Position numbers and translations under genes: made by a program | DNA from: a phage | Reading direction: 5' to 3' (one strand) | Sequence record: PZ452611.1 | Length of the DNA stretch: 64,000 nucleotides | Part shown: positions 14,796 to 28,595 of the stretch, in pieces | Position numbering within the stretch: position 1 is the stretch's first letter | Layout: every line of letters starts with the position of its first letter | Notes under the pieces: generated by a model | Databases searched by the model: none | What the model saw: the letters and a program-made list of their open reading frames with translations, nothing else | Told to the model about the DNA's origin: nothing

Positions 14796-15078
14796 ATTTC
14801 TATATGGGAATATTTTATGGGATACTGTTTTATAGGAAATTGTTACGGAGGGTAATTAGCATGCTAACTAAATTTATGAAATGCGAAAAGTTCTCATTTA
14901 GAATTTTGAATGATAATCATTCTCGTTTGCAGAATAACGGGCACCCCCGGTGATTGTCTCCCGGCCCCTACTGCCCCGGCTTGTTATTATAGTAACACAC
15001 AGGACAAAGAAAGCAAGAAGTTTTTGCATAAATTTTTAGACGATAATGATAATCGTTCTCATTTTATGCAGCGCCCAT

Positions 15079-24442: not shown

Positions 24443-24519
24443 CATGAATTGCTAAAGACTGATCTGCGAACTGCTGTATTATCAACTAATCAAAACGAAC
24501 CACATAAAGAGGAAACATC

Positions 24520-24783
24520 ATGAAACGTCTGGATCAGCTTAAATTAGTTCAGTACATGGCCTACAGAATTCTTGAAGTCCAAAAAGGTAGCAAAAAAGAG
24601 GTTTGCGAGAAAGCTTATAAGATCTTTACCCGCAAAAAAGATGACTGGATGCTACGCCAGACCAAAAAGGCTGACATCTTGGGGTACCTGGAAGAAGAGA
24701 TCCGACTTGAAGAGCAAGAAGAGATCCGCCGCAGTGAGGCAGATTATCAGGCAGCTTGGGAAAACTGGATGAGTAACAAATAA
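24520..24783 (+). CDS. hypothetical protein
   Basis: RBS AAAGAGGAAACATC. Confidence 0.45.
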   Translation: MKRLDQLKLVQYMAYRILEVQKGSKKEVCEKAYKIFTRKKDDWMLRQTKKADILGYLEEEIRLEEQEEIRRSEADYQAAWENWMSNK

Positions 24784-24851
24784 TACAACAAGTTGCACGA
24801 TCAGGGGGGCAATAAAGCCCCTTGATCACATAAAAATTATGCTATCCTTGG

Positions 24852-24880
24852 TTGACAAGGATCGGCAGTTTTGCTATATT
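24852..24880 (+). promoter_or_regulatory. sigma70-like promoter
   Basis: TTGACA-17-TATATT. Confidence 0.55.
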
Positions 24881-24929
24881 CTTTTTTGAAGGGAAGTTGT
24901 AAGAAAATTAACTAAGAGGTAAAAACACC

Positions 24930-25349
24930 ATGAACATTAAATCTAATAATCCGGCATATAGCTTTGATAACGCTTTTTGTCACGGTCCGGCGGCGAAAGG
25001 ATTCGAAATCGATGGTAAACTAATTATTGTCAATGTTGACGGGGAAGAGGTTGCAGTATATCCGGTGGCAGACGTTAAAAGCCGTTTGCAATGCCGCATG
25101 GATGTTACCGCCTACCAGCTTGATCCGGTCCGCATAGTTGCCCTGGTCCTGGAGGAAGAGATCAAAGCCATGCATCATAGCAATAAGTTTATCGGTGACG
25201 CGCAAGATAATATGAAGGTATGCCGCTATAAAGTTAATGAAGTGCTTAAAGAATACGGCTTCAAAGATCTGATGATCAAGCGTGATGAAAAATTCCGTTA
25301 TCGTAACGACCTGGCAAATCGAATCTATGAAATATACGAATCATTATAA
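24930..25349 (+). CDS. hypothetical protein
   Basis: promoter 24852-24880; RBS AAGAGG; last plus-strand gene, followed by terminator. Confidence 0.5.
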   Translation: MNIKSNNPAYSFDNAFCHGPAAKGFEIDGKLIIVNVDGEEVAVYPVADVKSRLQCRMDVTAYQLDPVRIVALVLEEEIKAMHHSNKFIGDAQDNMKVCRYKVNEVLKEYGFKDLMIKRDEKFRYRNDLANRIYEIYESL

Positions 25350-25367
25350 TTTCTTAACTAAACTATC

Positions 25368-25395
25368 AGGGGCTTTAAAAGGCCCCTTTCTTTTG
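25368..25395 (+). terminator. rho-independent terminator ending plus-strand arm
   Basis: AGGGGC-tttaaaag-GCCCCT then TTCTTTTG. Confidence 0.55.
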
Positions 25396-26347
25396 TCTGT
25401 ATTTCTCCTACCACAAACGGCCCAGCCTGGCAAGTGGAATAATTGACTAGCCAGCAATTACCAACACTGTACAAATATACATATAAAATAACTATTGCAT
25501 AATCTTTCATCTTGTGGTAGCAGGGCCATTTTTACACGTTTTCCTTCCAAAATTGCACGTAATGCAGCTATTGCATAAAATTTAACCTGATGCACATCTT
25601 CAATAGCTTGTCAACAACTAAAAATCTTTATAAGTCATACACTTACATAACCACAAAAGCGTGTTCTACGTGAAAAATCGAGTATAACTATAGCCGCCAG
25701 ATCTCAGAATTTACGTACGCTCACCATTCTATAGTCTGCTAAGTATTTATTCCAACCATAGAATAACAGAATAGTCAATACCTGCATAAAATAATTATTC
25801 GTGTAAACTGCATAACATAAATCAGCCGGGGTGTCAACATTTTTCGTAAACGGCTCGAAATTATCACTGTGAGCTATCATAAACAGAGAAATCTTTAGTC
25901 GTCTAATGTTTACTGTACGTTACTATACTAACTGGAATCATTAGATGACTAATAAAAAGATAAGAAATCATTAACAATGCAATTGTTTTATTCATAACAA
26001 TAAGGCAACTATGCAAACGAATGGCATGGCGCGACGGAGTCGCGACATAATATAAAAGCAGTAACCATCACCCCCGTGATAGTTTGTCTGCAAACTATTA
26101 ATCAGATCATAGTTGCCTTGTATTTAGTTAATCATGACATAAACTCAGGCATAGCCTTCGTCTCGAGGATGTTAACAAGCAAGGCAACTATAGATCTTCT
26201 AATAGTTGCCCTGCTTTTATATTATGTCATAGAAACACCCGAAGGGGTGACCAAAGGTCACCTGGCATAGCCAGTGAAATATTGTAAACAAGTTAATTAT
26301 TATCATGCAAACGAATGGCATGGCTTATCATCTCTGTGTAAATAGTT

Positions 26348-26511
26348 TGTTTGTAAACAGTTTATACGTGAACAGTTAGCTGTGTAAACTATCAGGCATG
26401 TAAGCTATTGAGCATGTAAACAGTAAAGGTCGTGAACAGTAAGCGAGCGAATAGTAATGGCGTGAACAATGACAGCGTAAACAGTCAGGCATGTCAATTA
26501 TGTTCAGTGTG
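26348..26511. repeat. tandem array of 11 units, 15-16 bp period, consensus n6-GTRAACAGT (iteron-like)
   Basis: 9-mers start at 26348, 26363, 26378, 26394, 26410, 26426, 26442, 26457, 26472, 26487, 26503. Confidence 0.7.
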
Positions 26512-27953
26512 TCACCATTATGTCATATTGTGTCAGACAAGTTTTTCTCCTCTTTGTCAAGTGCTGCATGAAAAATTTACAATCTGGTATGGTAGCATTT
26601 TTGCGGCCCTGTTTACATTCAGTACTGTATGTATAAGCCTTGTTGTGTGGGCGCTTAGACGTCTAGACGGTTGGAAGTCTGCAGGTCAATATCTAATCTA
26701 TTGGTTGCTAACTATATCCCACACAAATAGTAAGAAATGCAATTGTTATATGCGTAAACTGTAACTCATGTTATCAATCCCTGTATGGATCGCCAGTGGT
26801 GCGCATAATAGGTATTATGTTAAATTGCCAGTAATGATAACTATTCTCACAGTGATAGGTATTCTCATTCAACCCCACAAGATAGGTTGCAAATGTTGTG
26901 CCACTGTGTGAACGGCCTCGCCTATTAATTTGCCTCACTGCCTCGATATTTGAGAATTATTATAAGAATGAGAAGTATTCCCATTTCGTCCGCCTGGCAG
27001 CACTCCTGTAGGTCAGGTCAAAATCGGGAGAGAACTGGACCTGTTCAGATATTTCTGGCTGGCTCTTCAGGTCTGTGTGGGAAAAGCCGACCCCTCCGGC
27101 GGCGGGGAGGGGGTCAATTAAAAAATTTACGGGGCATATGAAGCGCTCTTCAGGTAAGGCATGTATTATGGGATGAAACCCTCTTCAGGAAATGATATTT
27201 GTGGGTGTGATATTTGCTGGAAAGCTAGATATGACTGGACTCCTGGCGGGGCAGGGGTAGTACAGACAGGGGAAATATGGGGGATGTAGTTGGGTAAATT
27301 GATCAGGCAGGTAGAGTATGGAATATGTTACGAGTATGTTAAATATGGAGGGTGAATATCTGCAGGATTTGTGTGTAAAATCAAAGACTTAAGTGGTGTT
27401 GTGGTATTTTCTATAAATAATTCAAGTTTAATAGGTGATATTTGTCCCTATCCACTTTGTGTGGTAAACAGATTCAGATGAGATTGGTTTACGAGTGTAT
27501 ACATAATATACAAATTAAAGATACAAGAAACCCCCCTCCCCCTTCGGCTACCATTCACCTTTTCCTCTGACTGGTACTTAAACACTTATTCAGACTCTTC
27601 AGGTTATCACCCATATATCATATGGCAGTGACTGGTGTCCTCCGGCCCCTCTTTCGTCACCCGTCCGCTTCGCCATGCTAATGCCATAGCCAATGGTTCG
27701 GTTGTTCACCCTGTTCACTCAGGTGTATCTCCATACCCCTTCAAACCGAAGAGAACAGAAAACCCGAATTACTCGGTAAAAGAAAAGAGAAGAACTTAAT
27801 TTTATCAGGATAAGCAAGAATGTCAAGGCATGACTGCTCACTAAACAAGCAAACAGTCATGTGTGGGAGGTAAGTGATTGTGGTGGTAGGAAATTTAGTT
27901 GAAAGATGTGTTATAGGTGCTCCCAGCACTTTAGCCGGGTAGCTAATTGTGTG

Positions 27954-28169
27954 TCAGTCCAGCGGTTCATCCTCTACTTCACTGAAATCAATGTTCATGG
28001 TCTCTTCCCAACCATCGATCTCAGCACAAGAGTGAAGTTCTTTAGGGTTTACTCCCAAAGCCTCAGCAACAGAGTCTATATTTAACACCTCTGGCAGGTA
28101 TGATTCATCGAATTCAAGGTAAATCAGGCCACGAGTGTTGTCAGCCCCACCAAATATTTCTATCTTCAT
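27954..28169 (-). CDS. hypothetical protein
   Basis: ATG (MKIEIFGG) 5 nt after GAGGAG; track ORF trimmed. Confidence 0.4.
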   Translation of the reverse strand: MKIEIFGGADNTRGLIYLEFDESYLPEVLNIDSVAEALGVNPKELHSCAEIDGWEETMNIDFSEVEDEPLD

Positions 28170-28289
28170 GAAATCTCCTCTGGAAATGAGAGTGTGAACA
28201 GGGTTTATACGTTCCAATGCACTGGAATTATGCACGTTTGCCTCTTCAGGCCATGCTTTAGCATGAGGAACCTGTGTGGGCTCGGTGCT

Positions 28290-28595
28290 TCATAGTCTAC
28301 CACCCCTGAACTCTTCGTGCTCAGGCATAATAGAGAACCAGATATCTACGATGTCCTCCCACGTCAGGTCATCAGCCTCAGGATCTATCTGGAGCGAAGA
28401 TGGAGAATCTTCAGAATCGAAGTTTTCCTCTTTCGCTGGCTCAGCCAAGGGACATATAGTCACTCCTTTGGATGTCTCTTCAGATGCATGTGTGTTTATC
28501 ATGTTCCACCCGTGAGTATTCCTGCAACAGCTGCTATGGACGTAATGATCATCAGGATCACCACCAAAACTTCGGACAATGTTTTCATTGTGCAC
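28290..28595 (-). CDS. hypothetical protein
   Basis: ORF only; start uncertain. Confidence 0.35.
   Translation of the reverse strand: MHNENIVRSFGGDPDDHYVHSSCCRNTHGWNMINTHASEETSKGVTICPLAEPAKEENFDSEDSPSSLQIDPEADDLTWEDIVDIWFSIMPEHEEFRGGRL

Follow-up and report, generated by a model that had tools for sequence, protein, structure and literature searches.

Bacteriophage T7 carries a terminal repeat of 160 bp, and directly after it, starting 14 bp from the repeat, the heptamer CCTAAAG and close variants occur about 13 times with a 13-bp period (positions 175-340), an E. coli promoter (A0) lying inside this left-hand array. A looser and weaker repeat set precedes the right-hand terminal repeat. We know of no established function for these flanking arrays, which we take to be those named SRL and SRR; the question dates back to publication of the T7 sequence, and a part in recognizing or processing the concatemer junction is suspected. 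In phage lambda, which has cohesive ends, cosB lies next to cosN and contains three 16-bp sites for the small terminase subunit (R1-R3) together with an IHF site, and these small-terminase sites load terminase. The 'a' sequence of herpes simplex virus, a virus with a related terminase, holds between its cleavage/packaging signals a variable number of ~12-bp repeats (DR2) that are not required for cleavage. Origin iterons, a further class of short-repeat array, usually measure 17-22 bp, with a classical period of ~22 bp, are in helical phase and lie near an AT-rich unwinding region, DnaA boxes and an initiator gene.

We analyzed a window of 64,000 nucleotides (sequence record PZ452611.1), the whole stretch of phage DNA under study, which represents phage rV5. 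Positions 25900-27000 show 100% identity with E. coli O157 typing phage 5 and 99.9% with rV5 (NC_011041), the alignment being in reverse orientation; the region is common to ~120 Vequintavirus records. The rV5 array described here belongs with the known kind of short-repeat array that stands beside terminal repeats. As in T7, a short exact terminal repeat (placed by homology in rV5) is accompanied by about a dozen same-strand cores of 7-10 bp with dissimilar spacers, and in both phages the array has a period of 13-16 bp, spans ~165 bp, starts no more than tens of bp from the repeat edge and lies in gene-free DNA. However, the cores (CCTAAAG and GTRAACWRT) have no sequence similarity, T7 has arrays on both flanks whereas rV5 has one on a single flank, TGTCA units form a second tier, at the predicted cut site, in rV5 only, and the lineages differ, T7 being a podovirus and rV5 a myovirus. 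Lambda cosB resembles the rV5 locus in having repeated sites, putative in rV5, right beside a terminase cut site, and it serves as the model for the mechanism proposed below, although rV5 has 11 sites, terminal repeats instead of cohesive ends, a dispensable array and no IHF consensus that we could find near it. Herpes DR2 shares with rV5 a variable-number short-repeat array at the genome end, but it belongs to a eukaryotic virus and consists of GC-rich, perfectly tandem units without spacers.

Anatomy of the repeat array

Exact matches to GTRAACWRT occur at seven plus-strand sites (26353, 26368, 26384, 26416, 26432, 26462 and 26477), and those at 26338 and 26400 join them when one mismatch is allowed, giving nine same-strand matches within 170 bp, compared with a maximum cluster of four in 200 dinucleotide shuffles. 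With the degenerate in-register units GCGAATAGT (26447) and GTCAATTAT (26492), the array comprises 11 units, which start at 26338, 26353, 26368, 26384, 26400, 26416, 26432, 26447, 26462, 26477 and 26492 and are separated by mutually dissimilar spacers of 5-7 bp. These counts confirmed that the array is far above chance expectation and bore out the eleven tandem repeats of 15-16-bp period reported in the first-pass annotation, whose coordinates (26348-26511) were about 10 bp too high. Tandem Repeats Finder, which had been suggested as a check on the statistics, scored only 2.4 copies of period 16 (26383-26421), owing to the dissimilar spacers; as it is too strict for cores of this kind, the significance of the array was judged by the motif-cluster test against shuffles. 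Across the 64-kb window, 13 matches to GTRAACWRT were found on both strands versus 5.3 expected, only 2 matches to the 10-mer core occur in the remaining 61 kb, and the 7-mer GTRAACW is ~6-fold enriched on both strands over the rest of the terminal zone.

The array is built in two tiers (Table 1), in which the GTRAAC units (type A) are followed by TGTCA-type units (type B) that reach the predicted cut. The last type-A unit ends 35 bp before the edge of the terminal repeat, and the type-B units, present in 4-5 copies with a period of 9-11 bp, are spaced by approximately one helical turn. The TGTCA units at 26510-26535, with 10-11-bp spacing, recall the direct-repeat layout of PhoB Pho boxes, a Pho box being CTGTCAT plus an AT-rich 4-mer.

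Table 1. Features of the terminal zone in window coordinates, and the corresponding repeat edges in two other genera. A slash within a sequence marks the repeat edge.
Feature	Position	Strand	Description and basis
Gene-free terminal zone	25350-27953		2.6 kb, between convergent gp159 (+, ends 25349) and gp158 (-, ends 27954); rV5 annotation
Left anchor: 20-bp direct repeat ATGCAAACGAATGGCATGGC, second copy	26305-26324	+	First copy at 26011-26030
Type-A array	26338-26500	+	11 same-strand units, core YGTRAAYWRT, 15/16-bp period; position kept in 19 relatives
Type-B short repeats TGTCA or TGTTCA	26492-26535	+	Starts 26492, 26501, 26510, 26521 and 26531; up to terminal-repeat edge
Predicted direct terminal repeat (DTR), 459 bp	26536-26994		Homology: ungapped Gotham alignment, position 1 = 26994, position 459 = 26536
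Array-proximal boundary motif GACAAGTTTTTCTCCTCTTTGTCAAG	26536-26561	+	Likely terminase cut-site context
Sigma-70-like promoter match TTGTCA-18-TACAAT	26554-26583	+	18 bp inside DTR; consensus match only
Four 15-bp 7-1-7 palindrome-like sites (TGAKAATnATTMTCA, Fur-box-like)	26835-26983	+	Distal half of DTR
Distal boundary GTCCGCC/TGGCAGCAC	26986-27003	+	Gotham alignment; KPP-1 comparison
Schickermooser repeat edges			Array-proximal AGCAAGTTCTCTT; distal not clearly similar to rV5
KPP-1 repeat edges			Array-proximal AACACAATTCTCTCTCCTTGTCAAG; distal GTCCGTC/TAGCACC, same offset as rV5

A CRISPR array had been argued against in the first reading, and the dimensions agree: the core measures 9-10 bp and the spacers 5-7 bp, compared with CRISPR repeats of 23-50 bp and unique spacers of similar length, and the phage is lytic, with no Pfam match, to cas or any other family, among the nine nearest neighbouring proteins. 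An open reading frame that runs through the array (26432-26764, 110 aa) was rejected as a gene because relatives vary here by unit indels of 16 and 31 bp. Scanning 24500-28500 against Rfam at permissive thresholds gave two weak matches, both at the gp159 terminator and none at the array.

The gene-free zone and the genome end

The array had been placed in a non-coding convergence zone, and this description holds, as the zone is gene-free in the rV5 annotation and gp159 and gp158 converge on it; what it missed is the predicted physical genome end. The rV5 paper draws the zone as a grey 'non-coding' box, ascribes the change of skew there to transcription direction and mentions neither repeats nor genome ends in it. 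Gp158-gp160 and their neighbours gave no Pfam match, the nine proteins nearest to the array being covered, and belong to PHROG families of unknown function; Pfam and PHROG scans of the proteins neighbouring the array yielded no DNA-binding candidate. The label 'FtsK translocase', which some records attach to gp160 homologues, has no Pfam support and was set aside. Gp153 (phrog_639), 3 kb from the array, is a predicted transcriptional regulator. Gp159 (24930-25349; 139 aa, no Pfam match) has ~92% protein identity between Vequintavirus and Phapecoctavirus, is the last gene before the genome end in both rV5 and Schickermooser, and is followed by a terminator-like hairpin at 25368-25387.

Terminal repeats have been measured by two groups in relatives that are >90% identical to rV5. 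Gotham has 459-bp terminal repeats (PMC7471380), annotated in its record as a repeat_region at 1-459, and Korf et al. reported 458-bp terminal redundancies for HdK5 and EdH4 (PMC6563267). A database search with the array returned several related records that begin a few hundred bases away, some of them with a repeat_region feature there. The Pr121LW record ends in ...TATGTCA and starts with GACAAGTTTTTCTCC, and was thus opened exactly at TGTCA/GACAAG; position 1 of the YN3 record corresponds to window position 26994, in all, three other records were opened at exactly these repeat-edge bases. Taken by homology only, these alignments place the DTR at 26536-26994 and would make the zone the physical genome end, so that the array would form the last ~200 bp of unique DNA before the DTR. 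Contrary to fixed ends, the genomes of BpE1AUH and of four bovine isolates came out as circularly permuted when PhageTerm was run with its defaults. When IMG/VR was scanned for contigs ending at the boundary motif, two contigs matched and neither ended there.

Both edges of the predicted repeat could be compared with those of more distant phages. Schickermooser (Phapecoctavirus) has a 328-bp terminal repeat (PMC6563267), and KPP-1 (Mydovirus) has a 514-bp repeat at 116316-116829 with T7-type packaging according to PhageTerm. Motifs related to the rV5 boundary motifs recur at the reported repeat edges of these two other genera (Table 1), and on sequence comparison the boundary motifs look like conserved cut-site contexts.

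The DTR and its surroundings hold further repeated elements. Sites of the form TGAKAATnATTMTCA occur nine times in the window at up to two mismatches, versus 1.4 expected, four of them inside the DTR; we call them Fur-box-like after what we take to be the Fur consensus. A repeated intergenic unit at 14.9-15.1 kb contains two near-perfect copies (14911-14925 and 15047-15061; e.g., GATAATGATAATCGTTCTC), and similar palindromes are present in the terminal zones of Schickermooser (256-270 of the piece compared), KPP-1 (~2456 of its piece) and ICP1 (~938). Also inside the DTR, TTAGACGTCTAGACGGTT at 26653-26670 resembles two tandem MetJ 'met boxes', assuming the met box to be AGACGTCT, and may be due to chance. 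To the right of the DTR, the gene-free zone contains four of the eight window copies of CTCTTCAGG (27063, 27146, 27181, 27595, 28242, 44879, 51513 and 52380), all on the plus strand and compared with 0.55 expected; KPP-1 carries this 9-mer within its own terminal repeat, ~85 bp from one edge.

A non-coding block further right, 27500-27800, is 98-100% identical across 11 relatives, exceeding the terminal repeat and the left flank, and was found in this genus only, where 119 records show 96.6-100% identity. A strong sigma-70-like promoter on the minus strand (27826-27799, TTGACA-16-TAAAAT with TG) would transcribe this block, for which Rfam gave no match, and the predicted RNA fold of 27500-27795 is ordinary (z = -0.36).

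Left of the array, 25995-26230 forms a dense inverted-repeat system, with four copies of AAGGCAACTAT that alternate in orientation, together with GACATAATATAAAAGCAG, an 18-nt inverted repeat whose arms, at 26044 and 26211, match perfectly and are 149 nt apart. It is followed by a segment of ~45 bp (26231-26275) with two GC-rich hairpins, CACCCGAAGGGGTG and GGTGACCAAAGGTCACC; rV5, Murica, nimi, C15 and APCEc02 share this segment, whereas Gotham, slur16, isim and ev156 carry different sequence in its place. The second of these hairpins had been reported as a perfect palindrome at 26246-26262; its position is correct, but it is a 7-bp inverted repeat around AAA and no strict palindrome. A 20-bp direct repeat had likewise been noted upstream of the array, with its first copy correctly at 26011-26030 and its second at 26315-26334, which should read as in Table 1.

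Variation among relatives

We compared 19 Vequintavirus sequences, and measured segment length and the distance of the last unit in 14 of the genomes. In all 19, a variable segment lies between the same two anchors, ATGCAAACGAATGGCATGGC on the left and GACAAGTTTTTCTCC on the right. The segment ranges from 106 to 237 bp, and between 15 and 121 bp separate the end of the last unit from the repeat edge (14 genomes in each case). In-register GTRAAC units number ~11 in rV5 and JES2013, 4-8 in most genomes, ~3 in FFH2, 2 in WM and 0 in V18, where the absence of the array rests on a single assembly. The changes between genomes are of whole units, 15, 16 or 31 bp in length. Since the unit number falls from ~11 to 0 among relatives, the array cannot be essential. 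The TGTCA-type units also vary in number and are never absent. Conservation of the array in related genomes, which had been put forward as a check, therefore applies to its position, kept in nearly every relative, and does not extend to the number of its units.

At the level of single columns, the array is the least conserved part of the terminal zone, with 40-60% column identity compared with 91-97% in the terminal repeat. Within it, the cores are better kept than the spacers: in orthologous units aligned with rV5, core columns are 90.8% and spacer columns 75.8% identical (Mann-Whitney p = 0.017). Across 72 units, information content is 0.7-2.2 bits in the 9-mer core, values that are inflated because the units were chosen by their core, 0.65-0.9 bits at the two bases 5' of the core and 0.1-0.6 bits in the spacers.

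The flanking DNA varies as well. In FV3, ~294 bp are missing between the first and second copies of ATGCAAACGAATGGCATGGC, the 20-bp direct repeat, as if recombination between them had deleted the intervening DNA; it follows that the segment between them, the large inverted repeats included, is dispensable. Beyond the genus, KPP-1 has no such array and Schickermooser has only four AATAATTA units at 12-16-bp spacing, and both share the boundary motifs, so the array is specific to the genus. Among the database records, 18 labelled 'Campylobacter phage' (MG0656xx) are >90% identical to rV5-type coliphages at this region; the one that we examined, C15, is marked UNVERIFIED, and these records are probably mislabelled or contaminants.

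Proposed role in packaging and alternative readings

The comparisons show the array to be a subterminal repeat array standing in front of the DTR as predicted by homology. Conserved cores, variable spacers and the near absence of the motif elsewhere in the window support the general idea, already voiced in the first-pass annotation, of an array that binds many copies of one protein. Four functions had been offered there, and packaging at a terminus has gained from the finding that the array abuts the inner edge of the DTR of close relatives, while the other three, an origin initiator, a partition protein and a transcription regulator, gained no evidence. For a partition centromere in particular, parA/parB-type genes were not found adjacent to the array, and the neighbouring proteins have no Pfam match.

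We consider it an even chance that the array is a set of accessory protein-binding sites for recognizing or processing the concatemer junction beside the DTR. The array and the TGTCA units end at the predicted cut site TGTCA/GACAAG and would thus form one flank of the concatemer junction that is cut by terminase. The type-A cores would be putative sites for a single protein with sequence specificity (the small terminase subunit or else an accessory end-processing protein), and this candidate protein would load in many copies beside the cut site and aid recognition or processing of the junction. The role of the array would be accessory, not essential. Compared with what defines a terminase site, the array adjoins the predicted cut site and is not required for packaging, V18 having no units and WM two. 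With as few as 0-2 units sufficing in V18 and WM, it is more probable that the essential signals reside in the boundary motifs and the TGTCA units. The regular array occupies one flank of the DTR only; right of 26994 we found no partner array, only dispersed repeats. A spacing of 15.5 bp per unit would rotate neighbouring sites by ~170 degrees and place them on opposite faces of the helix, arguing against simple ring wrapping and equally against phased iterons.

The variable unit number can also be read without any function, the array being a harmless and therefore persistent by-product whose units are gained and lost by slippage or unequal recombination where the DTR duplicates. Consistent with this are the range of 0 to ~11 units among phages >90% identical, the whole-unit changes, the lack of an array in V18 and the similar arrays beside the DTR of the unrelated T7, which would be expected if end formation itself generates arrays. 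However, units of the same genome differ from one another, as cores are kept and spacers are dissimilar (91% versus 76% identity between orthologous units), whereas recent slippage would yield homogeneous units, and extra copies of the motif are dispersed on both strands of the terminal zone. We therefore regard a functionless by-product as unlikely.

Repeated sites in gene-free DNA are also typical of origins, and the array might be part of a late origin, of the rolling-circle or sigma type, beside the packaging end, with the units as putative initiator sites. The rV5 paper counts proteins of the Vibrio phage ICP1 among the nearest homologues of the rV5 DNA polymerase, and late in ICP1 infection read coverage reaches its peak at the end of the genome, within the 1.3-kb gene-free space where the packaging terminus also lies (PMC7145576). 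Like origin iterons, which bind protein, the rV5 units are direct same-strand repeats; unlike them, they have a 9-10-bp core and a 15/16-bp period that is not helically phased. There is no DnaA box (up to one mismatch) in 25350-27953, the sole AT-rich stretch nearby is one modest 40-mer (80% AT, 26277-26316) and not a clear unwinding element, and no initiator-like gene lies adjacent. Cumulative GC skew peaks here instead of reaching a minimum, and changes in skew were attributed by the rV5 authors to the direction of transcription. The array is moreover missing in V18, and no such array was found in the terminal zone of ICP1. On these grounds the 'iteron-like' origin of the earlier annotation falls away, and a late origin appears distinctly unlikely. 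The published PhageTerm peaks of ICP1, at 431 (+) and 891 (-), are 460 bp apart, near the 459-bp repeat of the rV5 type, and ICP1, instead of packaging by the headful, may carry a short terminal repeat.

Alternatively, the array could be an operator, coated by a phage or host regulator that controls promoter-like sites at the repeat edge or blocks read-through over the concatemer junction. Promoter-like sites do flank the right end of the array (26554-26583 on the plus strand and 26526-26497 on the minus strand), a predicted regulator, gp153, is encoded nearby, and T7 has its A0 promoter inside its left-hand array. Promoter matches are, however, no commoner than in shuffled sequence (16 versus 10.7 expected), gp159 is already followed by its own terminator-like hairpin, nothing links gp153 to the motif, and other promoter regions of the window lack it, which makes an operator quite improbable. 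Repeat-rich regions near the end of the T5 genome have been proposed to pause ejection or to protect the end, and the subterminal position and the many tandem sites, which could hold a protein block, would suit a bound protein that shields the incoming end from exonuclease or controls DNA entry, but the array lies 459 bp inside the predicted physical end, behind the DTR, has no candidate protein and is dispensable in V18, so we judge this reading very improbable. Operator or roadblock and end protection are thus possible readings without specific support.

Returning to the packaging junction, it is tempting to speculate that the two-tier layout, with 11 GTRAAC units at 15.5 bp, TGTCA units at the helical turn and a cut-site motif related among three genera, is a loading platform for the terminase with which a large group of myoviruses forms T7-type terminal repeats, and that it arose independently of T7 SRL/SRR. 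We put this forward tentatively, as a possibility that we favor less than a general accessory role. If true, phages that package in this way would appear to need subterminal multi-site arrays quite generally, with the number of units (0 to 11) tuning packaging efficiency. In a bolder variant, modeled on ICP1, the zone would also fire late rolling-circle replication and thereby couple replication to packaging.

The 2.6-kb zone is left blank in the rV5 paper and annotation, and many rV5-type records have been opened at arbitrary points. As the predicted physical end, the zone would fix the map of a phage group that is much used in typing and therapy, and the genome end would combine a terminal repeat of 459 bp with cut-site motifs kept between genera and with a repeat array that varies. 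The natural series of 0-11 units in near-identical phages is a ready-made test of the role of short-repeat arrays.
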